64,000 bases of DNA from Vulcanimicrobiota bacterium (GCA_963795855.1 CAWCIZ010000003.1:864001-928000); one strand, 5' to 3'. Shown: positions 10,040-47,471, counted from the stretch's first letter. Notes: generated by a model from the letters alone, not told the origin. A program made the numbers and translations.

Positions 10040-10465
10040 ATGGCGGCTTCTTTTAACAAGGTCATATTGGTCGGCAACGTCGTCCGCGATCCGGAGATCC
10101 GGTACGTCGGCTCGGGCGCGGGCGTCACCAAGTTTTCGATCGCGGTCAATCCCAACAAGCGCGACGCAAAGCCCGAAGACACGCTCTTCGTCGACATCGT
10201 CGCGTGGGAGAAGCTGGCCGAGACTTGCAACACGTACCTGAAGAAGGGTTCCAACGTGCTGGTCGAGGGCCGCCTCGTGATTCGATCGTACGACGACAAA
10301 GAAGGCAACAAGCGCAAAGCGACGGAGGTCGTCATCAATACGATGCAGATGCTCGGCTCGCCGCGCGACCGTCAAGACGGCGGCGGCAGTGAATCATTTG
10401 CCGGCGCGGCAGTCGGCGGCGGCGGCCGCGTGGACGACGGATTAGACGAGGAGATTCCGTTTTAG
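10040..10465 (+). CDS. ssb: Single-stranded DNA-binding protein
   Basis: NKVILVGN..RDPEIRY OB-fold, acidic DEEIPF tail. Confidence 0.97.
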   Translation: MAASFNKVILVGNVVRDPEIRYVGSGAGVTKFSIAVNPNKRDAKPEDTLFVDIVAWEKLAETCNTYLKKGSNVLVEGRLVIRSYDDKEGNKRKATEVVINTMQMLGSPRDRQDGGGSESFAGAAVGGGGRVDDGLDEEIPF

Positions 10466-10539
10466 GACCTCGTAATTCTGTCAATGTCAAGATAGACCGG
10501 CAAGAACGCCAATTCTATCTGCCTATACAGGGCTTTTCG

Positions 10540-10570
10540 AAGGCTCGGTCATTTTTGACCGGGCCTTTTT
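10540..10570 (+). terminator. Intrinsic terminator between ssb and the first integrase
   Basis: AGGCTCGGTCA-TTTT-TGACCGGGCCT followed by a T run. Confidence 0.75.
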
Positions 10571-10583
10571 CTATGCCAGCCCT

Positions 10584-11876
10584 ATGTCACTCGGATGGCG
10601 CATTATCGTCAAGATGACAGCGTTATCACGCTCAAAATCGTGCTCGTCTAAGCGTCGACCGTCGTTTCAGCCGTCGGATCTTTACAAAATCCGCGTTTCG
10701 GTTGCCGCAACGGGCGAGCATATTCCTTTGCTCGTTGACGCGCAGACCGGCCTTCCGATCGTGCGACCGAATCAGTTTGTGTTAGTGGTACGGCGGGACC
10801 GATGTCAAGTAGCGACCCTGAAAACTGATCTTGCCGCGCTTTCCGTTGTGCTGGCTTGGGCGAAGAGCGTCGCGTTGGATCTACACGATCTTTTCGATCG
10901 AGGAGCGGGCTTGGAGCAAGCACAGCTGGTCGCGCTGGTTGAGGCACTTCGGAGCGATTACCGCAAGCAGTCACAGTCGAAGATTGTGCCACTGCACCGC
11001 GGACTTGTTTCCGCAGGTGTTTGGGCAAACCGTATCGCCACCGCACGCGATTATGTCGCGTGGAACCTTGGCAACACGCTTGCAAAATGTGAGCCGGGAA
11101 CGCTGCGTTATCAGCACATTCGCGAACGCCGCGAAGAGTTGATTAGGGCGTTCGAGGGGCGCATGCCACGCGTTCGCACGAGTTCTGGCCGCAAGGGCTT
11201 AGATGCAGTGCTGAAGGCGAGACTTTTTGTAGTGACTCGGCCCGATGCCGTGGAGAATCCGTTTCAGACCACCGTGCGAGAGCGTAATGCGCTCATCATG
11301 GACGTTTTGCAAATGCTCGGCCTTCGGAGAGCCGAGTTACTGAAACTGCGGACGGCGCATTTTAGACCTGGTCCGAAACCTGCGCTCTTTGTCGAACGCC
11401 GCCCCGACGATCCGGACGATCCGCGGTTAGACCAACCGCAGGTAAAGACGCGAGATCGGCAACTTCCGCTGGACCCGGCTCTCGCAGAACGAATCCATCG
11501 TTATATCACCGTGGAGCGACAACGTATTCCTAATGCGAAGCGATCGCCATTCCTGTTCTTGTCGCGTTCGGGCAAGCCGCTTTCGCTGGCCGGTGTAAAT
11601 AAGATTTTCGAGCAAATCTGCAAGTGGCACGGTGAGTTCAAGGGGCAACTATCGCCGCACGTTCTTCGCCACACCGCGAACGACGATCTTTCGGTCACCC
11701 TTGAAGAGGCCGGCTGCGATGCCGAGGCTGCGAGGGCCGTACGCAATTACCTCAACGGTTGGGAGCCGAATAGCGCGCAGTCGTCAACCTATACTCGCCG
11801 GTTCGTTGAAGGAAGGGCGCAAGAGATTTCTTTGGCGCACCAGCGCCGGATCTTCACGAAGGTCGGTGAACAATGA
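10584..11876 (+). CDS. Tyrosine recombinase 1 (GinA-like)
   Basis: LGLRRAEL, VKT, SPHVLRHT, LNGW, STYT catalytic set; intact ORF. Confidence 0.9.
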   Translation: MSLGWRIIVKMTALSRSKSCSSKRRPSFQPSDLYKIRVSVAATGEHIPLLVDAQTGLPIVRPNQFVLVVRRDRCQVATLKTDLAALSVVLAWAKSVALDLHDLFDRGAGLEQAQLVALVEALRSDYRKQSQSKIVPLHRGLVSAGVWANRIATARDYVAWNLGNTLAKCEPGTLRYQHIRERREELIRAFEGRMPRVRTSSGRKGLDAVLKARLFVVTRPDAVENPFQTTVRERNALIMDVLQMLGLRRAELLKLRTAHFRPGPKPALFVERRPDDPDDPRLDQPQVKTRDRQLPLDPALAERIHRYITVERQRIPNAKRSPFLFLSRSGKPLSLAGVNKIFEQICKWHGEFKGQLSPHVLRHTANDDLSVTLEEAGCDAEAARAVRNYLNGWEPNSAQSSTYTRRFVEGRAQEISLAHQRRIFTKVGEQ

Positions 11877-13383
11877 GCGCATCAAAGCGATCAAACTCAT
11901 TCGACCGCATTTCAGGTATTTATGAGCCGTTGTACGATATGGCGCGACGGCTTGTTCCGGTTGAGAGGCTTGTGTGGCGCGTGCCATCAGTCTCAGGCGG
12001 ACGGCTCAAGAGCCTTAACTGGGGCCGTTTCCCGCAGATCCCGCGCTACATAGCCGAAGCGATTGTCGCCTACATGCGACATAGTGTCGCAACGAAATCA
12101 CCGGACCACTGCCTGGGCACGTTCAATAGTCTCGTGCAATTCGCCGAAACAATGGTGACGCAGAGCGACCATCATGAGATGCGAACTCTGCTTCTGCTGC
12201 ATTTGGCGCGCATACGTGGTATCGCTCAGGAGTGGCGTTACCACTACGTGCGCGATTGGTATAGATGGTGCTTCGACCAGAACATTTCCGGGCTCGACGA
12301 ACCAGAACTACTGTACGAGTGTGGTCTCGCTCCGAATTCCCGGCAACCGCAAGGGCGAAGCCGGTGCTTTCCGAAGACCCGGACGATGGTCCGCTGGACG
12401 AGATCGAAGAAATTGCGTTACGCGCTGCCCTTCAACGCGATAGCGACTCACTTGTGGAGCGCACGCTGACCTGGATGTTCTTGGCTTTGGGCTGCAATCC
12501 AAAGAATCTGGTTCATTTGCAAGAGAGCGACCTCACATCGATCACAAGCGAGCAGCATACGTATTTCACCCTCAGCGTTCCGCGTATCAAGAAAGGCGTG
12601 CCACCGCGGGCAGTACTGAAGCCGCGCAAGATGGATGCGTTTCTCGCGGAACTGCTCAGACAGCTTATCGAGCGCAACGCGACACTGAACATTCCCGAAG
12701 GCTTTTCAAGGCCGCTTTTTGCCCGTGCGACGCCGCGGCGGGATTGCGTCGGCACCGATATCGAACACTACGCGTATCACTTTACATCACATGATCTCAG
12801 AACGATTCTTGCATCCTACGTGGAGCGCCTAAACGTTATCTCGCATCGCACAGGGCGACCACTGCGAATTACACCAAGGCGATTACGTTACACGTTCGCC
12901 ACGCGAAAGGTCCAAGAGGGTTGCTCAATGGAGGCGTTGGCGGACCTCCTCGATCACTCAGACCTTCAGAATGTGATCGTTTATGACGCGGGTACGTCGA
13001 TGGCCAAGCACCTGGACGAGGCACTTGCAGTGTCGCTTGGGCCGCTGGTGAACCGGTTCATGGGGCGGGTCGTAGCGCGTGAATCCCAGGCGTTCAATGG
13101 CGGCGGGCGCATTAAGGCCGACACCATGGGGCGCATTAAAAACATTGGCACGTGTGGCAGCACATCGCTGTGCACGCTCTTTCCACCATTCTCGTGCTAC
13201 CTTTGTCCCGTTTTTCAACCGTGGCGCAATGCACCCCATCGTGAAGTGTTGGCGGATCTGATTAAGCAGCGCGATGCGCGAGTCCAGGTGAGTGGACGTG
13301 TCGACGATCGCATCGCGAAACAGTACGATGAGATTATCCTTGCCGTCGGCCAGGTTGTGGCGCAATGTGAGGGTGCTGCATGA
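11873..13383 (+). CDS. Tyrosine recombinase 2 (GinB-like), frameshifts near 12320 and 12360
   Basis: ITPRRLRYTFAT, LLDHSD, C-terminal Cys cluster GTCG..LC...FSCYLC; ATGA overlap with gene 1. Confidence 0.82.
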
Positions 13384-15292
13384 GACTTGCATCCGCAGCC
13401 TTACATGAGCCCAGAAAGCAGCTTGAGGCGTTTATCGACAAGATGCGTGCGGCAGCGCCCTTTGGCAAGGTTGACTGGGATAACGCTATGTGGGACCTAC
13501 GGACTGTCTTACGCGGGCGGGTAAGCGTCTTCACAAGCGGACGCGCGAGGTGTTGTGGTTCACCGAGCATAGGCCGACCGGAGCGACGCCGGCAGTCCGC
13601 TTTTGCTGCGCCGTTCGTAGACTTTGCAAAGGCGATAATATGTGCGCGGCATTTAAGATCTGCGCAGACCATTGGCGCGCATCGCGTTTCAGTACGGGCA
13701 GAGCGCTATCTGTACGACGCGCTTAGAAAGGACGGTCTGCTGAGATCCGTGTTCCCTGCAGCACCGCCATTTCGTGTGGGCGGAAGATGCTGCGAGGAGA
13801 CGCGAAAAAATCAGCAGCGCATACCGCGTGAGTCAACGGCTGGAGGAAATTGCAAAGTCTCGTCGACCAGCACGCCATCTCAGGGCTGCGCATACAGTTC
13901 CGCTCGTCGATCCCGAAAAGTGAAACAGTCTGTCATTGTCAGCAAGATGCCCACACGGGAAACGCTTGAGGCACTCGCCGACATTTCGGCATCGAACGAC
14001 GTGTATAACGAGCGTGGAACGTTGATTTGCATGCGCATTGTCGATATTCTTGCCGCGACCGGCTTTCGCATAGGTGAAGCGCTGACGTTACCTTCCAGCC
14101 CGATCGTTCGGCGCGGCGATAACATTGGGCTTCGTTATTGGCCGGAAAAAGGCGGACAGCTACGCATAAAAACCATCAGTTCCGTGCACCGTGATCTGGT
14201 TGAACGTGCCGTCGCTGATTTGACGGAGGCATGCGCGGAGGCCCGTCGTCTGGCTCGATGGTGCGAGGAGAACCCTAGTCGGGTGGCACTTCCTAAAGGG
14301 CTGCCAGAAAACATGACTTCTGCGGATTTTGCCACGCTCTCGCTGGATGACAACCCATCGCAATGGCTTCGCGTTCACAAAGTTCCGTACCGGCGGCAAG
14401 ATAGGAAGATCGCCTTTGCCCGAAAAGACCTAGAACGTGCGCTCGATTGCGCTGCGCGATAATCGCCCACTGGTCCGTACAACGTACGGACAACAGCACT
14501 TGTCGAAATCGCTTATCGTGGTGTTTCTGAACGAGATGCATGCGAAGCGCAAGACGAATAGGTTTGTCTCCATCGGCGTATCATGGTCGGTAATATCCGA
14601 CTTCCTCGGTGGGCGGGAAGAGCATGGATATCGCGGTGTCTTCAGCCGGTTCAACGTGCGCGATGAATCGGGCGACTTCCATCGGATTACCACGCACCAG
14701 TTTCGGCATTGGCTCAGCACCATGGCAAAACGTGGCGGCTTGTCAGAGGTCGAACCCGCGCGGTGGATGGGGCGGCGACGTCTTGCCGACAATCGTGCGT
14801 ACGATCATCGAACGCAACCTGAACGCGCTGAAGAGGCGCGCGCACTGATCCGCGACGGTCGCGCAGCAGGTCCCGTTGTTGACACGTATAGGTCTCTTCC
14901 ACCGGCTGATGGTGACGCGTTTCTCGACGCACACGTTAACGCGGTTCTGACCACGCCGTATGGAATGTGCTTACATGACTACGGACAGGGGCCTTGCGAG
15001 AGGCACTTTTCGTGCGCCGGTTGCGGAGAGTCGCTTCGCCGAAAAGGTGATCCGGAAGAGCGTGCTGCCCTCATAGCAACGCTCGGACGCACTCGCAAGG
15101 CGTTGGACGCAGGTGAAGGTCGAGGCTGCCGACGGCACGTACGGCGCATCAAATTGGATCGCGCGAAATCATGGCCTGGAGATTGATTTAATTACGATGT
15201 TAGCCGTTGACGATGACAATGCGCATAGCCACGGAGATCGAGTGCGTATTTGGCCACAAAACAGTAGGAAGCGGGACAATCATGGCTCCTAG
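13380..15292 (+). CDS. Tyrosine recombinase 3 (GinC-like), several frameshifts
   Basis: ATGFRIGE, HQFRHWLST, WMGR..AYDH, GMCLHD..PC..SCAGC, then GTYGASNW in a shifted frame to TAG at 15292. Confidence 0.78.
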
Positions 15293-15740
15293 ACGCCGGC
15301 GTAGAGTGCCGAAAATGTCAGCGGAGGACAAGCAGCGGGTGTTCCACGAGTGGACGCGTGGTGCCGGCACGAGCGCAAAGGACGCCTCACGTGGGCGCGG
15401 CTTGAAGAGATATCGGGATTTACGCGTCAGGCGCTATCAAGTCATTCGGATATTGTTGAGCAATACGGCGTCGCCAAAGCTATCAACCGGCCTGACAAAA
15501 CGCGTACTCCGTTACCAAAAACGACTGACCAACGCGTACTCGACTCGCAGTGCGAGGTTGAGCGTTTAAAATCGATCATCAACCGTTACGACGAGCGATG
15601 GGCGACATATGCGCGCAATGCCCGCCCTACTCGGATATGACTTGGAGCGCTTGGAGGAGCCCCTTACGCCACCCGGACGCGCAGATTTACGGGTAGCGCG
15701 GCCTCCTGTGCAGAAGCGAGGCGGCCATGGGCGTCTTTGA
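15282..15740 (+). CDS. Small accessory protein of the recombinase operon (GinD-like), two frameshifts
   Basis: Joined frames read MAPRRRR...LTWARLEEISGFTRQAL...coiled coil...LERLEEPL; overlaps the end of gene 3. Confidence 0.65.
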
Positions 15741-16021
15741 TGGACGGGGATTTTCGTGTCGTCGAGTGGTCGAACAGCGGCAGCCTGTCTTGGAGGTGTA
15801 TCACGAGAGTGATGGCGACTGGCAGCTCCTTTGCGGGGGTAACGAACACGAGGACGACAGTCAAATTCTATTGCTACATCCCGCCCACTTGGTCGAGAAA
15901 GATAGTGCGCTCGCACAGGCTTGCGGATTTGCCCCTTGGCTTCGTCGCTACGCGCACTTCACCGAACGAGCCATGGAAGTGCGCGCCGATCGAGGACGAG
16001 GACGATGAGGAAGAAGAGTGA
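15727..16021 (+). CDS. DUF2185/Imm33-like small protein, frameshift near 15920
   Basis: VYHESDGDWQLLCG...DSAL + LADLPLGFVATR...W. Confidence 0.55.
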
Positions 16022-16054
16022 GAGCCGAGAGACGCTATTCCAGTTTACCGCGAA

Positions 16055-16816
16055 ATGCTTGCAGAACGGCCAAACGATCCGGTACTTTGGTTCGATCTCG
16101 GTCTCGCGTACAAACGACTCAAAGATTGGAGTTCGTGTGTTGAGGCGAACTCGAAGGCGCTTGAAATCTCGCAGAGCGCCGGCGATCCGGCTTGGTGGAA
16201 TCTCGGTATAGCAGCGACTGCTCTCAGAAACTGGGATCTTGCACGAAAGGCTTGGCGCGGATACGGCCTGGAGATCGATGACGGCCCAGGGCCCGTAGTC
16301 TGTGACTACGGTTCTACGCCCGTTCGTTTACCAAACGACGAAATTGTATGGGGACCTCGAATCGATCCGGCCCGCGTAATCGTAAGAAACATTCCATTTC
16401 CTGAGAGCGGCTTTCGGTGGGGTGATATCGTTCTCCACGATGGTGCTCCCAATGGTGAGCGCGAAATGAATGGCACGGTGTATTCGGTATTCGATGTACT
16501 TGAACGCTGGAGTCCGTCAGAGATTCCAACACTAGGCGTTGACGTGCACTGCGATTCCATCGAAGATTCCAAGGATTTAATCCGCGCATTTGAATCCCAC
16601 GACTTCGGTGCGGAGGACTGGTCTACAAATGTCCGCTATATCTGCAAGGACTGCAGTGAAGGCCGCCCAGGGCATAATCACGTCCCCCGTGACCCTGGAC
16701 CGAAAAGGTCGTTCGCTTTGGCGAGCCCCATGGGCGCTGCGTTGCAGTTTCTACAAGAATGGTGCGCGGCGTCTCCACACTCCCGCCGATTCTCCAAGCC
16801 CGTACCCATCGGCTGA
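16055..16816 (+). CDS. Tetratricopeptide repeat protein with Cys/His motif (true start probably slightly upstream)
   Basis: WFDLGLAYK, AWWNLGIAATAL TPRs; CKDCSEG..H.H. Confidence 0.75.
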   Translation: MLAERPNDPVLWFDLGLAYKRLKDWSSCVEANSKALEISQSAGDPAWWNLGIAATALRNWDLARKAWRGYGLEIDDGPGPVVCDYGSTPVRLPNDEIVWGPRIDPARVIVRNIPFPESGFRWGDIVLHDGAPNGEREMNGTVYSVFDVLERWSPSEIPTLGVDVHCDSIEDSKDLIRAFESHDFGAEDWSTNVRYICKDCSEGRPGHNHVPRDPGPKRSFALASPMGAALQFLQEWCAASPHSRRFSKPVPIG

Positions 16817-16854
16817 GGGACGTTGAGTAAGTTGACAAAAATGCTCTACAGAAC

Positions 16855-16902
16855 CGTTTTAGCGTTTTAGCATTTTAGCGTTCTAGCGTTTCAGCGTTCG
16901 AA
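16855..16902. repeat. Six degenerate 8-bp tandem repeats (left arm 1)
   Basis: CGTTTTAG CGTTTTAG CATTTTAG CGTTCTAG CGTTTCAG CGTTCGAA. Confidence 0.9.
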
Positions 16903-16929
16903 AAGTGGAAATGATCCGTCGCGACCAAT

Positions 16930-16976
16930 AAAATGTGCGAAAAACGTCCTGTGTTTGCAGGGCGTTTTTGCATTTT
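16930..16976. terminator. A/T-flanked hairpin of left arm 1 (bidirectional-terminator-like)
   Basis: AAAAACGTCCTG-TGTTTG-CAGGGCGTTTTT. Confidence 0.7.
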
Positions 16977-17033
16977 CTATCGTAGGCGTGCAGTTAAATT
17001 CGCTACCGCCCAAGGTTCGGCGGCCCGCGTAAT

Positions 17034-17910
17034 TCACAGTCTTAAGACTCTTAGTCGTTTAGGGTCCGCAATCACGTCAAATCGCACGATGCGCTTGTCT
17101 GCGACTTGCAGAACGATGGCAAGCTTCAAATTACCTTCTGAGGAAATAACGATTCCCGGACTACCGTCAATTTGCGCGACCCGCCCGCGCAACGCGAAGG
17201 CACGGAAGCGAGCTGCATCCGACACGACGGCAGGCGCGCCTTCGACTCGCTGTGACGCGGCGGTGGGCAGAACTTGAGGATCCGCAATCCGTATCACGTT
17301 TGGGTCTAGCAGCGCCATAAGGCGGCCAGTATCCCCTTCCCGTGCAGCATGTAAAAATGCTTCCGCCACCTGGCGTGCGTTCGGATTGTCTTGGCGTACA
17401 ACGGGCGATCTTCGACGCACGCATGCGCGCGCCCGGCTTGCGAGTTTCTTTGCGGCCACAGGCGTGGTGTTGAGAATATGCGCGATCTCTTTAAACGGCA
17501 TTCCAAACGCGTCGTGGAGAACTACTGCAACGCGTTGAGGCGGAGTCAACTCCTCGAGAACGATCGTGAATGCCGTGACTAGCTCGGACGCAAGCAACGT
17601 TGTCTCTTCGGGCTGGCTTGCGTCAGGGGTTGCAATCTGCGGCAACTCACGCTCCTCTTCCGGAATCTCGCGCCGTCTACGTAAGACGTCAACGCAAATC
17701 CGCGCGGCGACGGTAGTCAACCATGCCGGCAGATTTTTGATCGTCGTTGTGTTGGTGCGATCGTATTTGATCCAGGTCTCCTGGACGACGTCTTCGGCTT
17801 CTGTTTGCGAGCCGAGGATCCGGAACGCGACACAAAGTAAATGCCGCCGTTCCACCTCAAAATGCCGCAGCCGTTCCTCTTCTAATCGTTGCACTACGTC
17901 AATATCGACA
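17034..17910 (-). CDS. ECF sigma factor, ECF41/SigJ-like with SnoaL-like C-terminal extension (start approximate)
   Basis: AFRILGS.TEAEDVVQETW, LTPPQRVAVVLHDAFG, KLASRAR, C-terminal IADPKRL. Confidence 0.88.
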
Positions 17911-18247
17911 ATGCCAGCGACGTTCCAGCCAAGGCGAGGAAGAGACCGGGAAACGCGACGTTGTACAGCACACCTGCGCGAATGTGGAACGCGATGGCCC
18001 CGATGAAAAAGACTACTAAGCCCGCAGCCGCCGCCGTTCCGATCGCGGGAACCCCGAGAAGACCCGCAACGAGCCCGAAGGCGCCCGCCGCCTTTAAAAC
18101 AGCGAGCGTGGGAATCCACGAAGGCGGCACGCCGACTTCATCCGATGTCTTGAGTACGAACGGAGCCTTCGCCAGATCAGCAAGACACGCACCCACGTTT
18201 GCGAGAACTGTGAGACCTCCAACGGCCATGTAAAGCTGGTTCATCAT
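17894..18247 (-). CDS. DoxX family membrane protein
   Basis: LKAAGAFGLVAGL, FFIGAIAFHIRA. Confidence 0.8.
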   Translation of the reverse strand: MMNQLYMAVGGLTVLANVGACLADLAKAPFVLKTSDEVGVPPSWIPTLAVLKAAGAFGLVAGLLGVPAIGTAAAAGLVVFFIGAIAFHIRAGVLYNVAFPGLFLALAGTSLALSILT

Positions 18248-18254
18248 GGCATAT

Positions 18255-18281
18255 GACGGCAAGTGGCGGCAAAAGGTGACC
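18255..18281 (-). promoter_or_regulatory. ECF41-type promoter for the DoxX-sigma operon
   Basis: GGTCACC-N16-CGTC, close to the ECF41 consensus TGTCACA-N16-CGTC. Confidence 0.6.
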
Positions 18282-18439
18282 TGGGCGAGGAAAGACTCCG
18301 GACACCCCTCCTAGGACACGAACTCGAATTTGCTCCATGGAGGTTCCGTACGACCTACGGCCATTCGCTTGCGATTCCAATAGTGACCGTTTACTGGTGA
18401 GATCCGGCTCTTCCGGGCACAAAGCTCGCCTTAGTCACC

Positions 18440-18514
18440 AGTTAATGTGAAATGCGAGCAGAAACTACCAATTAGCGTGAAACTCTTCTAAAAGGTGAGG
18501 CAACGCCGTTTTAG
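18440..18514 (+). repeat. Right arm copy 1 (att-like)
   Basis: AGTTAATGTGAAAT...CTAAAAGGTGAGGCAACGCCGTTTTAG; homologous to 20469-20542. Confidence 0.85.
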
Positions 18515-18605
18515 CGTTCTGACGTTCTGAGGTTCTGACGTTTTCGCGTTGTAATATCACCGAATACACGAAAAAAAACGCCCCCTTACGTTCGGGGCGT
18601 TTTTT
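18507..18605. repeat. Left arm 2: six 8-bp repeats plus hairpin
   Basis: CGTTTTAG CGTTCTGA CGTTCTGA GGTTCTGA CGTTTTCG CGTTGTAA, then AAAAAACGCCCC...GGGGCGTTTTTT. Confidence 0.88.
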
Positions 18606-18617
18606 GTCGCTTGATAC

Positions 18618-18802
18618 TCATTGTGGCTCGGCCCGACGGATAGCGCGAAGCTCTTCCAGAATGGAATCGAGTGTCTTTGTGATTCTGTCGTTTGACGCGC
18701 CGTCCGAAGACATCGAGTCCAACGCCAATCCGACGCCGTGCGCGAATTGCCCGAGCGCATCCACTTCGTCTGGTGCGTATGCTTGGCCGCCGGCTCGCTT
18801 GA
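18618..18802 (-). pseudogene. 3' remnant of a TM+GAF-like sensor gene
   Basis: Reads KRAGGQAYAPDEVDALGQFAHGVGLALDSM; similar to 24134-24480; no start. Confidence 0.65.
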
Positions 18803-18858
18803 CGTTCTAGCGTCTCGATTGCCCAATAGTAAAAAGCCCTGTTTACGGGCTTTTTACT
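18803..18858. repeat. Truncated left arm 3: two 8-bp units plus hairpin
   Basis: CGTTCTAG CGTCTCGA, then AGTAAAAAGCCC-TGTTTAC-GGGCTTTTTACT. Confidence 0.7.
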
Positions 18859-18871
18859 TTGTGGCTGTGGG

Positions 18872-20388
18872 TTAGTGCGATGTCGCTAATAACGCACGGA
18901 GCTCTGCATTCTCCACATGATCAAATGCGGCGCACGCGCGATCGATCAGATCGACTAGATGCTGCTCTTCAATCGGATCGATTTTGCTGTGATCGGTGTG
19001 CGCACCGTAGAGCACGAATCCCGCCATCTGCTCCCGCACGACCAACGGGATGGCAACGACTGGCGCATGGCTGCCATGCGGAACGTCGGTGCGTAACCAG
19101 CGCGCCTCGCGAATTTGGAGCGGTGAACGCGCGGAGCGTAAGAAACGCACGAGCTGATCGTCCGCTTCCAGGCGGGCGGCATCCGCCTGATGCCAACCGG
19201 CAGCAGCAACACGAGCGTATTCACTACTGCCGTTACGGCGAAATAATGCCGCCGACGCCAGTCCCAAAGCTTCGGGCGCCTGAATCGCAAGGGCTTCCTC
19301 GATTATGCGTTCATTCGAAGCTAGAGCCAGTGAGGCCCCTAGGCGGCGCAGGTATCGAGCTGCGTCGTAGCGCGAACGAAACAACGTTCGCTCCACGACG
19401 GTCTCGATGCGCCGATGCACCGTATTCATGACGAGCGCAAGCAGGATTGTCGCAATCGCCTGCAACGCAAGCGCCGTTCCGGTCTCTGTAAGGTAGTGTT
19501 CGATGAGCCAGTCGACGCCCGCTATTGAGGCACCGAGTGAGACTGCTGTTGCAGCGAAAACCGTTGACTCGATTCAGTACGAAAATTGGATCAATGTCAC
19601 TGCTCTTGACAAGTGCATACGCAGTGCACGCCGGGAATTATGGCAATTGCTGCCGCTCCGAATCCCGCCCACAATCCAAATGCGGTTTCGTACCCCACAA
19701 TAGGAACGCGAACGGCGATCAAAAACATTGCATACACGAGGTAGCATAGGCCGAGGACCATTCCGAAAAGCGCCAGCCGAATCTGCATCTGCATGCGGCC
19801 CGCGCCCTCGCGATGACGGGCGATGAGAATGCCTGCTGCAATCAGCAGCGACGCCGCGGAGAAATACGCCATCACCGACTCGCCCCAAAAGCTGCCGTGG
19901 AGCGTTTTCGGATATTCGTACACCTCATTCGCGATGAGAAAGCTTTCAGCGGCAATGGCCACCGCAAACGCGATGCGGTCGGCACGAACGCGCCATCCTA
20001 GCACGCTATCGTCCGGGAAGCGAAGGGCAAAAATGATTAATGCCGGCCAAAAGCCGTTATGCGTCAAAAGCGTAGAGATCAAATGAATCGCGTCGCTGGC
20101 GGACGTCGATATTGGTAGGCCTCCCAGGAACGAGTCGGCGGAGTTTAGCGACGCTAAGAACAGTGAAAACGTCATCCATCCCGGACGAACAGTGACAAGC
20201 CACGCGGCGATTACGATTGCGCACGCGGCGAATGTCGCGTCCGTTACGCCGTAGAAGCCTAAAAACTTCTGCGCCAGCGTAACGTGGCCGTGATCGTAGG
20301 CAAAGAGCGCTATTTGATTAGCGATCTGAGTCGAGATAACAACTGCCCCCAGGAACCACGAAATAAGCGGCAGCAGGCGCTTCGACAT
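18872..20388 (-). CDS. Polytopic membrane protein with C-terminal GAF-like domain, two frameshifts near 19565 and 19630
   Basis: FALRFP TM region joined through AYALVK..IDPIFVLNR to VERTLFR...GFVLYGAH...IDPIEE. Confidence 0.7.
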
Positions 20389-20468
20389 GGCGTAGTCTTC
20401 GCGTCGGCTTTCCGATCTACATCGCGTCGGGCTGACAGGGGCCCAAGGTCCTCTCGAAAGGACGCGGT

Positions 20469-20542
20469 AGTTAAGGTGAAATCCCCCGAAGACCGCTAGT
20501 TCGGGCGAAATTCGCCTAAAAGGTGAGACAACACCGTTCTTG
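20469..20542 (+). repeat. Right arm copy 2 (att-like)
   Basis: AGTTAAGGTGAAAT...CTAAAAGGTGAGACAACACCGTTCTTG. Confidence 0.85.
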
Positions 20543-35564: not shown

Positions 35565-35715
35565 ATTCATTTCGATGCGCCTCTGCCAAGAACCGGAGCG
35601 GCGGTCAAGAGCGCCCGAAATTGCGAAAGCGCCCTGCGCGAGCAGGGCGTTTCGTAATTTTAACCGTAGTGTGCGCCGGACACCGATCTCTAGCTGTACG
35701 AGAAACGGAGTGCTC

Positions 35716-37820
35716 ATGCATCGCTGTCTCACCGCCCTACTTCTCACCGCGCTTCTCGGCGCCGCCATGCCATTGAACGCGCGGGCATTTGGGATCGAGG
35801 ACGTGCTGGCCGCGCCGTTCGTGGACAATCTCGTCGCCTCTCCCGACGGTACCGTCCTCGTGTGGAAAGTCGATGCAAGCGGCAGGCGCAACCTGTACAC
35901 GAATGCAGGCGGCAGCATCCACGCGCTCACGCACTACGGCGCAGACGACGGCCAAGACATCGACACTCCCGAAATTCTTCCCGGGGACGACGGCGTCGTC
36001 TACCTGCATGGCGGCGTCCAAGACAACGCAGGTGGAGAAAATCCGAACCCGGTACAGCAAGTGCCGCCGCCCGATCGTGCAATTTTCATCGTTTCGATTG
36101 CGGGCGGGGAACCGGTCAAGGTTGCGGACGGCAATGCCGTATTTCTTTCGCCGAAGGGCGATGCCGTTGCGTTCACCACCGTACAGGGCCAACTCGGTGT
36201 CGTCTCGCTGACGAAGAACGCTACGGGTTTCGCGGCCGGCAAACCGGATGTGTTGCCGATTCGCGGCAGCGCTTCCGATGTCGCCTGGTCTCCCGACGGA
36301 GCGAAGATCGCCTTTACGAACTCGCGCGGCGATCACTCTTTCATCGTGATTTACACACCGGCGCAGCATTCGTACGTGTACGCGACGCCGGACTTCACGC
36401 AGGATGCGGCGCCGTCTTGGTCGTCCGATAGTTCGCGCGTTGCGTTCGTCCGTACGCCGGGCGCGATCATCGGTGAAACGGTCTACGACATGGCGACGTT
36501 CGATTCCGGCGGGTCGTCCAGAACGCCATGGTCTATCTGGGTCGCGAACGCGAAGAGCGGCAGCGCGCGAAAGATCTGGACGGCGAACCCCGGTGTGGGT
36601 CACGCGTTCTATCCGACGATGAGCGCGGCGCAGCTGTGGTGGCTGCGCGGCAACACAATCGCTTTCCCGTGGGAGGGCGACGGTTGGCAGCACATTTACG
36701 CGATCTCCGCTGACGGCGGACGCGCGACGCGCCTTACGAGCGGCCAGTTCGAGGTCGAGACGGTGGCGGAGTCGCTCGATAAAACGCATTTGCTGCTTGC
36801 AACGAATGAAGGCGACCTCGATGCGCGCCACATCTGGAGCGTCGGAGTCGATGCCCGGCCGCGTCAGCTTACCCGCGGTCCGAACAATCAATGGTATCCG
36901 ACGCCGGTCGAGCACGGGGGACTTGCGTATGTCGACGCGGGCTATGCCGCGCCGCCCGTGGTGACGATCGCAGGCAATCCCGGAAAAACACTTGTCGCGG
37001 TGCGCACGCCGTCGAACTACCCGCAGACGCAAATGGTGCGTCCTAAACTGATTACCTACAAGGCGCCGGATGGCCTGACGATTCACGCGCAGCTTTCGTG
37101 CCGCACGCAGGCGCGAGGCGAATGCCGGCGATCGTGTTCGATCACGGCGGCCCACCCCGACAGATGCTCGGCGGGTTCCATTATATGGAGCCGTACACGC
37201 ACCTTTACGAGATGAACCAATATCTCGTGAGCAAAGGCTTTGTCGTACTCTCAATCAACTACCGCCTGGGCATCATGTACGGGTACAAGTTCCGGAACCC
37301 GCCGCATGCGGCGTGGCACGGGGGCTCGGAATATCAGGACGTCCTCGCGGGCGCGAAGTGGCTGCAGAGACAGTCAAACGTCGATGCAAACCGCATCGGC
37401 ATTTACGGCTTGTCGTACGGCGGTCTCTTGACGGCACTGGCGCTCGCGCGCAACTCCGACATCTTTAAAGCGGGCGCCGACTTCGCCGGTGTGCACGATT
37501 GGACGACCATGTTTGATCACGATTACGGTCACCCCGTGGGAACACCGGAGCAGCGCCACATCGCGACGATGTCGACGGCCGAGGGCTATCTCAACAAGTG
37601 GAAGTCGCCGGTCTTCATCGAGCAGGGCGACGACGATCGCAACGTACCGTTCTCGCAAGGCGTCGATCTGGCGGCGAAACTGCGAGGGCGCGGCGTGACG
37701 GTGCAGACGCAAGTCTTTCCCGACGAGACGCATGAGAATCAAGTTTGGATGCACTTGGTGGAACAGTATCGGTCAGCCGAAGCTTTCTTGGCAAAGTACC
37801 TGCATCCGGTGCAACCTTGA
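35716..37820 (+). CDS. S9 prolyl oligopeptidase family peptidase, frameshift near 37095
   Basis: Beta-propeller WSPDG repeats; HGGP, GLSYGG, DDRNV, ETH. Confidence 0.9.
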
Positions 37821-39171: not shown

Positions 39172-41785
39172 TCACTGACAAGGCAGCCACATCGGCCGTC
39201 GGCAGCACAGATCGCGGCACCAAGGATCTCGCATACCGCTTTGTCCTGCGCCATTTTCGAGGGGCGCAGCGACGGTCGCATGCGCTTCGAGTGCCTGCTT
39301 AGCGATAGCGACGATCGCTTCGACGTGTGCGCGAGTCAGTTCATTGAGTTTGGATGACGCCAGTGCCGCGTTTCCTCTATGGACGACATGCCCGAGCGTT
39401 GCCCGCGCAAGTGCCTGCGCGTCGGTTGGTGTGCCGCGCGCCGGCGCCGTCCACATTAGGCCCAGTTGTTTGACGAAGCGCATCTGCAAGTTGCGGCGCA
39501 CGACACCGTCGTGCATTTCGCGCGGCCCCGTGAGTTCGCCGAAGATGCCGGACTCCGCCCAAGTGAAAAGGTCCGTGATGTTCATGGTGGCGCGGCCGGG
39601 GTACTTCGTCTGCAAGTCGTCGATACGCTCGAGCGTAAGCGGCGAGAAGATCTCTCTCAGCGCCTGATCCTGGGTCTGTGCCGCTATCTCTACGACGGGA
39701 ACGTCGTGACGATTAGGCGGATTGTAAAACCAGGTCTGGTTGTTGTCGATTGACGACATCTCCGAGTACGTCGTCCTCGTGAGAACCGCTGCATTGAAGC
39801 GCCATGCCTCGTCGGAGAACAGCCAGCGCTCGAGCAGCTGCCACGCCTGGCGTTCCTGTGCGTATGGCACCGCTGAAAGCGCTGGTTCTTCCTTCGGATC
39901 GCCTTGGGCGCTTCGCGAAAGATATTCCGCGCCTATCGTGTCCGCGGGGCGCGTCGCGCAAAGCGTGTATTGCGCTAGCGGCATGACAAATGCAAGCCGC
40001 GCCTGATCGAAGGGCCTGCCGCGGAACGGAAAGCGTGCGTTGACCGCGTCCATCACGCCGTGCCACATCTTCAACTGCGTGCCGCACCATGCCAGCGGCT
40101 CGTTCGTGAGATCGTACATTTCGATGCGCGGGTCGATCGAATGGCCGTTAGCGAAAGCGGCAGCGTCTTCGTCGGAAGCGAAACGCTGCATCGGATTCGA
40201 CCAGCCCGACGCCCAACGCCGAAGCGTCGGAATTTCTTGCTCGGGCGTTTTTGCACCGGGGATGTACTTGTAACCGTAAGCGATCGCGTAATAGTCGTAC
40301 GGACCGAGCGTGGTTTGTTCGTAATCCCCGTTGCGAGCGCCCTTTGGCCACAGGTTTGCGACCGGCGTGTACTCCATCACGGAGCTTGCGATGCCGTACT
40401 TCTGGGTAAAGGACTTGCTTTGCAACTGCGAAGCGGTATATGCGAGTGAACCCATGAAGTTGTGCTGCAGCCCCATGTCGTGTCCACTCTCGTGCAACAC
40501 GATGGCAAGTTCGAGCTGTTGGTTGAAGGCGTTCTCATTCGCGCTCGTGTCGGGCAGACCGCGTGCCGGCGCAATGAGAAACCGGTAAAGAAAGCCCGAA
40601 GCGGCGCCGCCGGTTGCGTCTACGTTGACTCCGACGTTGATTTCCTCGCCCGTGCGAGGATCCGTCACGAGCAGCGCTTCCGCACCGTACAGTGGCTGCA
40701 CGTTCGCGACCCACCGGACGACGTTGTGCCGGATATCTTCGGGATCCCAACTTGGATCGGCGGGCTGATCCTGCACTTGAATTGCGTTGAGGATGCCGGC
40801 TCGTGCGAAAGTCTCTGTTCCACGCGAGCAGCGCTGCGCGAACCGTGTTGCGGTACTCCTGCGGAATGGTATTGCTCAGGTAATAGACGATGGGGTGCGT
40901 AGCGTTCGACGGGCGCGCCGGATCTTGCGGCGCGAAGTTCCAACGCGTGATGTACTGCACGTTGCGCGTTTCCAAGTTGTCGGTCGTGAAGTCCAAGAGG
41001 CCTTGTTCGAAATATCCGACGCGCGGATCCGCGATACGCGGCATGTAGCCGTCGTGCGGCAGCGCGATGAGGTTGTACGTCATCTGGACCTCGAGGCTGC
41101 GCGCGTCGGGCGAACTATCTATGAGATTCGGTTTTTCGGACCACCACGTTTGCGACACGCGAAGCACGTCGTTTTCCGGGAACGCCTTCGCTTCTTCGAA
41201 GAACGAGCGATCCGTGTCGAGGTGATAGCCATGCAACGGATTGGTAATGACGTTATCGAACGCCGCCGAAAAATTGGCGACGTCCGACAAGAACGGCGTC
41301 GCCGCGACGACGACCGTATCGGCATCCTGCGCGGCTATCGGCACTACGGCGATGACCGATGACGGCATCGATTGCTGCGTATCGAAATCCTGCGCCGTGT
41401 TCGGAACGACGCGCGCATACGTGTTCGGCCAACGGATCACGACTTGGTCGTCCACGCGATCGAATCGTAAGATGCGCGCAGGCGCAACGTACGGCTCGCC
41501 GGGCGCGGGGCCATATCCGCCCAGGCCCGTGGCCGGCACGGACGTTTCTATGAAATCTGCTCCGAGCTGGGTCTTCGCCAGCGCGAAATAGACTTTGCCC
41601 CCTTTTCTTACGATTGGTATCAACCCGGGCAGCACTTGCGCGCCTTTGACGAAATCGGCGTAGGCCGGCGGCGCGGAGTCTTCAGGATTCGGAGACGCAG
41701 ATGTGTTCGCAGCGCGCGCCGGCGTTGCGGCGAAAACAGCAATGCCCGCACATAAAAGCACGGAGCAAATCGGAATCTTCAACAT
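39172..41785 (-). CDS. Secreted zinc-dependent metalloprotease (DUF5117/DUF4953 type), frameshift near 40800
   Basis: ADPRVGYF, DIRHNVVRW, HESGHDMGLQHNF, SSVMEY Met-turn. Confidence 0.88.
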
Positions 41786-41972
41786 AGGCGTGGGCCTCAT
41801 TGTAGGGGCGAAATCTGCCTTTAACGTAGTGCGCCGCGCGCCGCACGGGGAGTGCCTTTGGAACCATCCGGAAGCCTGGCAAAACGCGAGCAATAGAGCG
41901 CTCGATCGCGGAGCGAGCGCGAGGCCAACTCTGCATCGAGGCGAGGGATATACGGTAACGAATCCTCGGCGG

Positions 41973-44202
41973 ATGCGTCTTTTTGCAGTCGGCGCCGTCG
42001 TTGCGCTCACGCTATTAACGCCTGGCGTTGGCCCCAGCGCGGCGGAAAATCCGCTGATGCAACCCAGTACGCTTCCGTTCGGCGCGTTGCCGTTCGACCG
42101 CATCAACGACAGCGATTATTTGCCGGCGATTGAGGCCGGTATGCTGCAGCAAATCAAAGAGGTTGACGCTATCGCGAATAACCCGGCGCGGCCCACTTTC
42201 GATAACACGCTGGTCGCGATGGAGAAATCGGGACGGCTGCTCCATCGCGCGATGGGCGCGTTCACTGTGCAGGTTGAGACCAACAGCGATCCGGCGCTGC
42301 TGCGCGTACGCCAAGCGATCGCGCCGGAGTACGCCGCACATCAAGACGCGATCTACCTCAATCCGAAACTCTTCGCGCGCGTTCAGGCGATTTACGAGAA
42401 CGTCGATCGGCTCAAGCTCGATCCGGAATCGCGCCACCTCGTCGTAACGTATTACCGGCGCTTCCTCCATGCCGGCGCGGATCTTCGCACTGCAAAGCAG
42501 ATGCAGCTGCGGCAAATCAATCAGCGGCTGGCAACGCTGCAGACCGCTTTCGAACGCAAACTCCTTGCCGGGACGGCCGCGGGTGCGCTCATCGTGCGTA
42601 ACAAGAGTCAACTCGCCGGCCTGAGCGACGGTGCCATTGCCGCGGCGCAGCAGGCGGCAACGACAAAGGGCGATCCGGGCGGCTATCTGATTCCGCTGCA
42701 GAATACGACGCAGCAACCGGCGCTCACCCTTCTGCAGGACCGCGCGACACGCCGGGACCTCTTCGAAAATTCATGGACCCGCACCGAGAAGAACGATGCC
42801 GACGACACGCGTTCGACCATCGCGCAGATGGCTAAGCTGCGCGCTGAAAAAGCAGCGTTGCTCGGCTATCCGGATTTTGCAGCGTACCAGCTCACGCAAG
42901 AGATGGCGCAGACGCCGGCGGCCGTTCAGACCTTCCTGCGCGGGCTGATCGGCCCGACGCGCGCCGTGGCTGCGGAAGAAGCCTCGGAGATTCAAGCGCA
43001 GATTGATAAGGACGGCCGGCATTTTCAGCTCGAGCCGTATGACTGGAACTATTATGCGGAGCAGATTCGCAAAGCGAAGTACCACGTCGACGATAACGAA
43101 ATTCGTCCGTATTTCGAATTGAACGATGTGCTGCAGAACGGCCTTTTCTATGCCGCCAATCAGACTCTACGGCATCACGTTCAAAGAGCGCCGGAACATT
43201 CCGGTTTGGCAGCCGGACGTGCGGGTGTTCGAAGTCTTCGACAAGAACGGCGCGCCGCTCGCTTTGATGTACTTCGATTTTTTCAAGCGCGACAATAAAC
43301 AGGGCGGCGCATGGATGAGCTCCTTTGCTGATTACTCGTCGCTGCTCGGCACAAAGCCGGTCGTCTACAACGTCGAGAACATTCCAAAGGGGGCGCCGGG
43401 GCAGCCAACGCTTTTAACGCTCGACAGCGTGAGCGGCATGTTCCATGAATTCGGCCACGCTCTGAACGCGTTTTTCGCCGACGAAAAATATCCGACGCTC
43501 TCCGGCACCGCGAAACCACGTGACTTCGTGGAATTCCCGTCCCAATTCAACGAGCATTGGGCGCTTTATCCCTCGGTACTCCGGCATTATGCCTTCAACT
43601 ACGAGACGCACGCGCCGATGCCGCAAGCGCTTGTGGACAAGATGGAGCGCGCCGCGAAACTCAATGAAGGGTATTCGATGGGTGAGAGCTTGGCGGCCGA
43701 CGAGCTCGACTTGGCGTGGCATTCCCTGCCGGCCGGTGCTCCGGTGCAAGATGTCGACGCCTTTGAAACGCACGCGCTCAGCTCGTCGGGCACGGATTTC
43801 CGCGACGTTCCGCCGCGCTATCGTTCCACGTACTTCGCGCATATTTGGGCAAGCGGTTATGCCGCAGGCTACTACGCGTATATGTGGAGCGAAATGCTCG
43901 ACGACGACGCGTACCAATGGTTCCTCGACCACGGCGGACTTACGCGCGCAAACGGGCAGCGCTTCCGCGATATGATACTCTCGCGCGGAGATTCGCAGGA
44001 CTACGCTCCGATGTTTCGCGCATTCTACGGCAAAGATCCGGATGTTGGTCCGCTGCTGAAATTCCGGGGTTTGCCTTCGCGAACGGCGCACACGCTCGGC
44101 GGAATGGCCTATCCGGTGCTGCCCAAGCCCGCGATCTTACCGCTCGGGTCGAGCACGAACTGCCACGTCAGCGTTTGCCCGCCCGAGAATGTTACGTTGT
44201 AA
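41973..44202 (+). CDS. dcp: M3 family peptidyl-dipeptidase, frameshift near 43160
   Basis: FHEFGHAL, DFVEFPSQFNE, GYAAGYYAYMW. Confidence 0.88.
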
Positions 44203-45474: not shown

Positions 45475-47471
45475 CTAACCGCGCACCGGCAAAGCCGTCG
45501 GCTTCGGATGGGGCCGAGATTTCTCAACCGGGCGCAATGCAGGCTTTGCTACCGTAGCAGCTTTCGGCGCGGGCCTAGCGACGGGTGCAGCGGGATGCAC
45601 GACCGGTTTCGCGAGCGGTGCAACGGGATGCACGACGGGTTTCGCGAGCGGTGCAACGTGATGCACGACCGGTTTCGCGAGCGGTGCAACGTGATGCACG
45701 ACCGGCTTCGCGAGCGGTGCGACGTGATGCACGACCGGCTTCGCGAGCGGTGCAACGTGATGCACGACCGGTTTCGCGAGCGGTGCATTGCGATGCACGA
45801 CCGGCTTTGCAACAGATGCATTGCGATGCACGACCGGCTTTGCAACAGATGCATTGCGATGCACGACCGGTTTAATCGCTGTTATGTGGATCGGTGCGCG
45901 TTTCACGGCGCGATAAACCGGGTGCGCGGCGGGCGCGCGACGCGCTGGGAGGGAAACGATCTTGGGACGTACGCGGGCGATCGATCGGATTTGGGTCTGT
46001 TGCTTCTGGAACGAAATACGTCTGACGTCAGGCGCCTTTGCTGCCAACCGAGGTGCAGCAAACGTACGGGAAAGCACGATAGGATGCCTTACGGCTCTCG
46101 CCGATACGTAATGCAGATTTGCCGAAGTCGGAACAACCGGAACCGAGCCGCGAAGGAGTACGATTCGCCTGGCCTGTTGTGGACGCAGAACGACGCGACG
46201 CCTGAAACTGCCGCTGCGCCACGCGCTCAGCGGAACCATAGTTGCGCCGCCGTAATACCGAGCGTTCGTGTAGTAGTTGTAAACGTTCGTGATGTTCGTG
46301 GCGCCTGACAGGCCGGTCGGCGGATACGAATAGTTCTGCCCGTACCAAGGCTGATATTGCTCGCCCGGTGCAAGCGGAATCCAACCGATGTCGGCATTGC
46401 TCGAATTGCCGAGAAAACCGCTCAGGCCCCCCAAAAGATTTCCGACATTGCCTAAAGAACCGCCGTTGCCGCCGCTCAAGAAAAATGAAACGACCGCGGG
46501 CAGCCACGCCGAGGCGAGGCTCGCCGATGAGTTCTGATATTGATATGCCGGAGGCTGCCAGAGCCACCCGCCATAGTTTGAATTATTGAACCACGAGCCG
46601 TAGTGCGAGGTCGTATAGCCGTAGGGAGCGTTATCGACCCACGTGTAGCCGTATCCCGGTTCCCACACCCATTGCCCGTTCTGATACGGTGCGAAGTTCG
46701 TTTGGCTTTGATTATTCGGAGCCCACGCGTATCCGTATCCCGGCACGTTTTGCCACTGTCCGTAATTTGCTAGGTTTGCGTAACCGGCAAGCTGCGGCGA
46801 GATATACGGATTTGCGTTATAAGCTGAGACCGTCGCTTGATCCCGCGAGATATTGAATTGATCGAACGAATCCATTCCAATCGCGTTTTGCAGCCCGACC
46901 GAAGAACCGTTCGCCACCAGCGTGCTGCCGGGTGTGAGCGTCTGCGAACCGTTGGCAGTAGCGATTGTCGCTGCTCCGCTGCGTACGGTTACGAGTGTCT
47001 CGCCGTTACTCAGTACCGTAATGCGGTAGTCGCCGCTTTGATTCGGCCGAACGGATAACGCGGGCGTATCGATTTGGGGATTGCCGTCCGCACCTTGCAG
47101 TTCCGCAAGATCGACGGTGCCCGCCGCGCAGCTGCGCCTCGCGCGAACTCGGGATTGAGGTTGATGAGCCGGACTTGCGTGTTGTTCGCTAGCCGCAGCA
47201 TCGAGATGCCGTCGAATTGCACCTCTGCATCGGAACCCGGCCCTGTAGCGATGTAATCGCCCGGAACCAGGACCGCGTTCGTTGCAGCGGCCACTTGCGC
47301 ACCGCTGTCGCCGCGAATGATGACGACGTTGCCGGAGGCGAGGCTCACGCTCGCTACACCGGGAGCACCCGAACTAAACGTTTGCGCGCTTGCCGGCATT
47401 GCGTCGCCCAAGATGCCGGCCAACGCCACGCCCGCCACCGATACGGAGAGAATCTTTTGAAACGATTGCAT
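45475..47471 (-). CDS. FecR + DUF6600 secreted protein, frameshifted near 47110-47150
   Basis: PGDYIATG..AEVQFD FecR; YGQW..VPGYGYAW, APY..GQWVW, HYGSW, IGWIPLAPGE. Confidence 0.8.
45595..45870 (-). repeat. 33-bp coding tandem repeat (~8 copies)
   Basis: KPVVH(HV/RN/PV)A(PL/SV)A 11-aa units. Confidence 0.9.

Follow-up and report, generated by a model that had tools for sequence, protein, structure and literature searches.

Cassettes stacked downstream of ssb in a Vulcanimicrobiota genome are probably transposase-less derivatives of a target-specific DDE transposon family

Introduction

How a bacterial genome comes to carry a row of gene cassettes behind one essential gene, when none of the cassettes encodes a recombinase, is the question raised by the region downstream of ssb in a Vulcanimicrobiota bacterium. 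We analyzed 64,000 nt of one strand of this genome (GCA_963795855.1 CAWCIZ010000003.1:864001-928000; hereafter, the window, with coordinates counted from its first letter), the assembly of which is 86% complete. The original prediction, made from this stretch alone, placed three units in tandem at the 3' end of ssb and implied that an unknown recombination system mobilizes them in trans to build an integron-like array. Here, we report that the units probably derive from a target-specific DDE transposon family of the Vulcanimicrobiaceae, having lost the transposase and decayed in part. On comparative sequence evidence, members of this family sit at the stop codon of ssb or at copies of it that have been displaced, and the 8-bp repeats between the units are copies of real ssb ends.

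Results

The two homologous right arms in the window match at 13/14 and 21/23 positions, as originally claimed, and both are true element ends. A right-end profile has exactly two matches in the window's genome, the arms themselves (one was a seed). In relatives within the Vulcanimicrobiota, the same ends bracket complete units that span 525 to 13,090 bp, which does away with the fixed size of 1.6 to 1.7 kb proposed earlier. Cargo lies on the minus strand throughout the window, as predicted, but on both strands in relatives, so this orientation is not a family trait. The tips of the family are inverted, with TGYTGTCTCAC (or GGCTGWCTCAC) at the left and GTGAGACAACG at the right, and they are accompanied by subterminal GTGAAA-type repeats and, in the left end, by a hairpin; in relatives, the left tip, the repeats, and the hairpin follow in this order directly after ssb or after a repeat run. 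By its sequence, the true left end is an inverted copy of the right end and is mostly decayed in the window. Left tips begin with TG in 51 and GG in 35 of 98 cases, and 62/66 right tips end in CG (duplicates included). Left ends were scored by profiles, which replaced a looser pattern for the left inverted repeat that was mostly noise. An exact pattern of right tip plus 9-mer gave 51 matches in 27/151 genomes, compared to 2 for the reversed control; 35 of the 51 are on the ssb contig, all of them downstream, on the same strand, and within 32 kb; the other 16 map to different contigs. The left and right ends within a unit are more alike than those of different units (p<0.0001, to which kinship contributes).

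In one relative (L212, G074 C2), tandem units with a right-tip site lie off the ssb contig of a 7-contig genome, possibly at a secondary site.

In relatives, the large units encode a PF01609 protein of 474 to 540 aa. Its gene is on the minus strand, immediately internal to the left end, and points at the hairpin there, at a fixed distance of 170 to 360 bp from the unit ends. The ends belong to a DDE transposon family rather than to the recombination system that had been implied. Residues D250, D329, and E393, together with Y386-R389-E393-K400, are invariant in 51/51 transposase sequences, and the zinc ligands of an N-terminal SWIM finger are largely kept (CxC..C in 50/51, H in 48/51). The best fold match of the predicted model (predicted local distance difference test score 88.6) is Tn5 transposase (Z 18.0, root mean square deviation 3.8, 262 aligned), piggyBac is third (Z 13.6, deviation 5.6, 262 aligned), and the N terminus weakly matches ZSWIM8 (Z 5.2). 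A sequence search of solved structures returned nothing below E 0.72, and a feature search returned clusters that combine SWIM and DDE_Tnp_1. A word-index search gave a clade of 79 homologues, found in 15/401 genomes from the phylum, and all 15 belong to the same family as the window; loci with a related transposase come mostly from Vulcanimicrobiota/Eremiobacterota records. Among 23 complete units in relatives, the transposase is intact in 4, present as fragments in 6, and absent from 13, a series which shows at the sequence level that internal deletions yield cargo-only units. No tyrosine recombinase (PF00589) occurs in 120 open reading frames (ORFs) of 11 units, where one resolvase and a few insertion sequence (IS) fragments are present. 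As predicted, no recombinase family was found in the scanned cargo proteins of the window units, and neither alignment A1 nor PF01609 detected a copy of the transposase in this genome (86% complete).

More distant SWIM-DDE proteins of ~405 aa are not ssb linked in the loci read. They form a second family (L225-L234, SWIM plus DDE_Tnp_1) with a small divergent zinc-ribbon ORF, and a tRNA is nearby in 5/15 short loci; in two of these (L154, L157), the anticodon corresponds to a stop codon. A Bdellovibrionales-titled record contains a transposase of 41% identity, cut at the contig end (L129), which may reflect spread beyond the family or mis-binning.

To count insertion sites, we started from 68 transposase loci and removed 13 that have no C terminus or a short flank and 13 duplicates, leaving 42 informative loci. 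In 40/42, the element is at the ssb stop codon or a displaced copy (37 assigned automatically and 3 by eye: L131, L141, and L187). The 37 comprise 30 that abut the ssb stop codon, 4 that follow another right tip, and 3 that follow a GInt-like end plus the 9-mer (GInts are mobile elements discussed below). The exceptions are L186, which shows no link to the site, and L132, a 25%-identical outlier. The element also abuts ssb in 6 further genomes, some of which may repeat earlier loci. No conclusion rests on unpublished genomes: G251 is one of the 15 transposase genomes and one of these six, G014 is one of 76 rows in the stop-codon comparison below and is absent from the ssb-end counts, and G125, G153, and G170 enter denominators only.

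With the family's ends and target defined, the window reads as follows.

10040..10465, plus strand: ssb (PF00436, E 4e-34)
10457-10465, plus strand: last 9 bp of ssb, the target, encoding Pro-Phe-stop (sequence)
10466..16853, plus strand: GInt-like element with three recombinase-type genes, a small ORF, and TPR cargo (PF00589 on two genes; NF041502 E 1e-72, below cut-off)
16854..16902, plus strand: footprint run 1, ssb-end copies (a 9-mer and five 8-mers) with decay growing distally (sequence, shuffles)
16903..16975, plus strand: inner remnant of a left end with a terminator-like hairpin, lacking the tip and the outer repeats (left-end profile positions 61-127, E 8e-4; hairpin z -5.5; terminator scan)
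17034..18262, minus strand: cargo 1, a DoxX-like protein and a SigJ/ECF41-type sigma factor (family scans)
18437..18505, plus strand: right end 1, comprising a pair of GTGAAA-type repeats plus the terminal motif (right-end profile E 9e-10, this copy being one of 44 seeds)
18506..18554, plus strand: footprint run 2, one 9-mer and five 8-mers (sequence)
18555..18802, minus strand: relic unit, a hairpin at 18569-18605 and a 3' fragment of a sensor gene, without a right end (folding, comparison)
18803..18858, plus strand: two decayed footprints (18803-18818) and a hairpin at 18830-18858 (folding, sequence)
18872..20388, minus strand: cargo 3, a membrane-GAF protein, frameshifted near 19545-19670 (PF13492)
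20466..20533, plus strand: right end 2 (right-end profile E 4e-10, not a seed; 87% identity to the L071 end)
20534..20542, plus strand: single decayed ssb-end copy, CCGTTCTTG (sequence)

Right end 1 is 79 to 82% identical to the L071 and L073 ends. The three left arms of the original prediction, made of 8-bp repeats plus a hairpin, need to be redrawn. The repeats and the A/T-flanked hairpins (folding z -4.2 to -6.4) are where they were placed; the 8-mers are ssb-end copies that lie between units and, in relatives, directly behind ssb, so they do not belong to an arm. The left-end tip is missing from all three units: in the window's genome, the left-end profile matches only its inner half, at 16908-16975, apart from weak hairpin-only matches elsewhere. 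Loss of this tip is common in the family, and a recognizable left tip follows only 19/59 right tips. The middle unit is a relic of ~290 bp without a right end. Accretion at ssb is borne out and direct adjacency is not, because ssb is 6.4 kb upstream and the multi-recombinase element at 10466-16853, omitted from the prediction, lies in between. The hairpin would terminate both ssb read-through and the convergent cargo transcripts.

The upstream element fits the GInt description in its layout (three recombinase-type genes, a small fourth gene, and cargo) and its ssb repeats; its second and third genes are frameshifted in this assembly. It is the most recent arrival at ssb and belongs to a family distinct from the window units. 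The G145 array (L073) contains 114 bp of this element's left end (82% identical).

The window has three copies of the 9-mer CCGTTTTAG, at 10457 (the ssb end), 16854, and 18506; the junction copies are identical to the last 9 bp of ssb, as predicted, except that the last junction differs at 2 positions. A tandem repeat pattern has 2 matches in the window and 0 in 100 shuffles, and by sequence the 8-bp repeats that separate the units reproduce the 3' end of ssb (CNTTY-stop). Such repeats immediately follow ssb in 25/87 distinct ssb ends of relatives. Parsing with at most one mismatch allowed gave 132 extra repeat units, or footprints: 115/132 are 8-mers and 17/132 are 9-mers, and 113/132 are valid Pro-Phe-stop alleles of the ssb end. 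Their last three letters are TAG in 61, TGA in 48, TAA in 15, and TGG in 2, compared to 25 TGG expected under independence. Because non-coding mutation would not avoid TGG, the footprints were copied from real gene ends. Adjacent footprints are identical in 53/132 cases versus 23 in shuffles, which fits duplication of the current allele or slippage, and the first repeat after ssb is the host allele in 12/25.

The largest stack seen is that of G078 (L205-L208): it contains nine right tips spread over two contigs, along with transposase fragments and runs of as many as ten footprints. Hairpin repeats of a REP-like family are often found behind the ssb stop codon or a footprint run (L062, L065, L066, L082, L083, L099, and L116). 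Four scar-like matches away from ssb (L220-L223) have no element ends beside them, and we took them as chance.

The ends are tied to ssb in relatives, across which both cargo and its order vary. A 545-bp cassette is found in the ssb arrays of five genera, at different ranks and beside different neighbors; compared pairwise in four genomes (6 pairs), it is 94 to 96% identical where ssb is 72 to 83% identical. This identity across five genera indicates that cargo-only cassettes move. The cassette has a right end (partial in two genomes) but lacks a left tip, suggesting that it is transferred as part of composites. The membrane-GAF unit also occurs beside other neighbors in G145 and G152, with its gene intact (504 aa) and 83 to 85% identical in DNA. 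In sequencing run X1, pieces of cargo 1 are 93 to 100% identical to the window's copy and are followed by its right end and different repeats, on low-depth contigs. Five same-genus genomes, three of them fragmented, have no orthologue of cargo 1 (best 68 to 77%), and 300 genomes of the family contain distant paralogues only. Run X1 gave no joints of circles or empty sites; covering 5% of words on 2-4x contigs, it is uninformative on intermediates or habitat. Two loose ends there are presumably library adapters.

Discussion

The reading we favor begins with a transposase that would recognize the ssb end, insert at the stop codon, duplicate 8 to 9 bp, and push older units downstream. Loss of an element would leave one extra ssb-end copy as a footprint. 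A newly arrived autonomous element could lend its left end in cis and lift a composite that ends at an older right end, and such a composite would bring right-end-only cassettes and foreign footprints into a new host. Duplication is signaled by the 8-mer behind the right tip, which equals the host allele in 14/30 cases (chance 0.20, p 0.0009), and by L202, a two-unit composite flanked by identical 9-mers. The evidence supports non-autonomous units that accrete at one site, as first proposed. Mobilization purely in trans is unlikely for them because the left tip is absent and a left end is needed in cis. Since no left tip and no transposase were found in the 86%-complete genome, the stack in the window is probably frozen.

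Several observations weigh against this account. Both flanks are equal in only 4/23 complete units (chance 0.20; 3/8 among units that abut the stop codon), so target duplication alone is insufficient. Composite transfers may account for part of the mismatches; they do not explain all of them, because the distal right end matches the host allele in 11/23 arrays, no better than inner ends (7/17). Footprints are mostly 8 bp (115/132), though the symmetry of the tips suggests 9. The site is also used by GInt-like elements, which could produce footprints or bring about allele switching. With 83 to 85% identity versus 79 to 81% for ssb, the membrane-GAF unit is barely closer than ssb itself, and vertical descent is possible. 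No carriers were found in viral contigs, plasmids, or phages, and no transposition activity or intermediate was observed. Finally, the statistics run over related genomes, and p values are overstated. Duplication combined with composite transfer and allele switching is favored, and GInt-like elements may contribute.

The unequal flanks could also mean that the DDE transposase carries 8 to 9 nt of donor flank, by a hairpin that extends into the flank, as in piggyBac, or as the spacer of a circle. The flaps would anneal in a near-identical target gap, the flanks would differ after replication, and the host stop codon would sometimes be replaced; excision would usually be seamless, with footprints coming from fill-in of mismatched overhangs. 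Flanks are indeed unequal in 19/23 units and in 11/13 with the best-matched pairs of left and right ends, and the two sides of a unit agree less often (4/23) than neighboring footprints do (53/132, p 0.04). Among the 12 closest genome pairs, 8 have unlike ssb stop codons compared to 1 for rpsF (p 0.009), and the ssb stop codon carries little tree signal (29 changes versus 33 shuffled; rpsF 24 versus 34), and piggyBac, whose chemistry is given in the available part of PMC7351741, is the third fold match (Z 13.6). Against this stand the 14/30 right flanks that equal the present host allele, the compatibility of L202 with duplication plus a composite, the YREK motif and best match to Tn5, which indicate flush hairpin cutting, and a weaker stop-codon contrast over 22 pairs (14 versus 7, p 0.07); furthermore, GInts are reported to make att variants themselves (PMC5385486, in part). 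We regard as doubtful, while taking seriously, the idea that a single-protein DDE transposase acts as a conservative site-specific integrase, carrying 8 to 9 nt of the previous host's ssb end, overwriting the stop codon with synonymous variants, leaving an ordered footprint tape of past hosts or events, and building an integron-like array.

It is considerably less likely that GInt-like tyrosine recombinases mobilize the units in trans or account for every footprint, with the DDE gene as a passenger. Such an element is directly upstream here, and homologues are directly behind ssb in L070, L093, and L104; footprint runs also occur behind GInt-like right ends, and the accessible text of PMC5385486 describes GInts at ssb ends with imperfect direct repeats. 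The unit ends, however, are unlike GInt-like ends and accompany the DDE gene at its fixed distance, and the gene's catalytic residues are invariant. GInt-like recombinases may nevertheless produce footprints. Least probable of all, and very improbable in our judgment, is that large autonomous elements simply decayed in place, the cassettes never having moved and shared cargo reflecting descent or homologous recombination. The scarcity of left tips (19/59, none in the window) and the deletion series of the transposase would agree with this. The original prediction had named ends of larger autonomous elements decayed in place as grounds for its own rejection, and this applies in part, the ends being those of a DDE transposon family. 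Decay by itself falls short, since cassettes with cargo only have passed between genera: the 545-bp cassette is 94 to 96% identical across five genera among different neighbors, a near-identical cargo-1 unit with other repeats occurs in run X1, and the five same-genus genomes have no orthologous cargo.

Among known systems, the closest parallel is with mobile insertion cassettes (MICs), such as MIC231 (IS231/IS4 family) and the Tn3-family MICs of Xanthomonas, for which tandem clusters and alternative end pairing are described in part of PMC4337579. MICs, according to the same text, have passenger genes between transposon ends and no transposase of their own, and are activated by a cognate enzyme. 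Passengers without a transposase, between ends shared with an autonomous element, make up 13/23 complete units here, and the window has the right ends; a cognate transposase may mobilize the cassettes, as the comparative evidence suggests. Two intact ends are also a feature of MICs, and the window units lack the left tip. The units further differ in that a single fixed target lies in an essential operon, runs of footprints separate the units, many cassettes have only a right end, and the flanks are mostly unequal.

The transposase resembles the IS4 family (and IS5-like elements) in its full YREK DDE set, unbroken gene, Tn5-like fold, and 8- to 9-bp direct repeat (PMC2266710, in part); the IS4 signature Y-2-R-3-E-6-K with the DDE triad, as defined there, is present in 51/51. 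In family models, by contrast, every IS family scores well under its cut-off: four proteins reach 22 to 29 bits with NF033592 (cut-off 115) and, at best, 47 to 62 bits with NF033579 for IS5 (cut-off 140). The available text of that source reports strong target preference for some IS4 members, target duplications of 7 to 13 bp, and CA/CT starts. The tips here are TG/GG...CG rather than CA/CT, the 8- to 9-bp repeat is equal on both sides in only the 4/23 units noted above, and the family has an N-terminal SWIM finger, subterminal repeats, and cargo of up to 13 kb. Eukaryotic piggyBac shares the IS4-type hairpin pathway and a fixed target and differs in its 4-nt invariant target and lack of footprints, as far as the consulted part of PMC7351741 goes.

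GInts are known at the ssb end with imperfect flanks (PMC5385486, in part), and SEs (integrative elements that circularize with a strand bias) and Tn554 leave a copy of a donor flank as their footprint (PMC10214605, in part). These systems use several tyrosine recombinases, which describes the upstream element and not the window units; the GInt ginABCD operon is absent from the latter. Site-specific accretion of integrative and conjugative elements (ICEs) and related islands likewise involves tandem stacking at one site, decay, and cis mobilization (PMC5812530, in part), and differs in that no integrase or conjugation family was found among the unit ORFs scanned. The comparison literature also includes 10.1101/2023.03.28.534373, consulted in part.

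Integrons have attC hairpins at their cassette junctions. The ordered, variable array with its newest member at one end resembles an integron in outcome, and only there: the enzyme class differs, the best score with TIGR02249 (IntI) in the 86%-complete genome is 70.5 versus 265, and no attC-like hairpin was found at the window junctions, which fold no better than shuffles do (z 1.1, 0.0, and 0.2). By analogy, then, the system would work like MIC cassettes accreting at an ICE-style site, not like an integron. The literature searched, beyond which lie ISfinder, subscription journals, and supplements, held no description of this transposon family.

A DDE transposase able to find one gene end with no evident targeting partner would amount to a natural site-specific integrase of compact size, with the SWIM finger as the candidate targeting part. 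The family indicates that an integron-like capture array can arise from transposon parts in soil bacteria, and footprint runs would record, in order and in countable form, the traffic of mobile elements at one locus. Flank carrying, if true, would be new chemistry for bacterial transposition and would explain the fast stop-codon turnover of an essential gene.

Additional features of the region

Neither a tRNA target in the window nor any Rfam match was found. In the window's genome, rpsR is at C3:937628, ~63 kb from ssb; the ssb-rpsR interval is 3 to 19 kb or none in relatives where rpsR was reached. The accessory region between the two genes (20543-64000 and beyond) is rich in peptidases, serine hydrolases, and extracytoplasmic function sigma factor pairs. 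Genes split by frameshifts at 19545-19670, 35575-37820, 39172-42106, and 41703-44202 may reflect assembly indel errors rather than decay. The ORF at 45475-46917 has proline-rich 11-residue tandem repeats near its C terminus.

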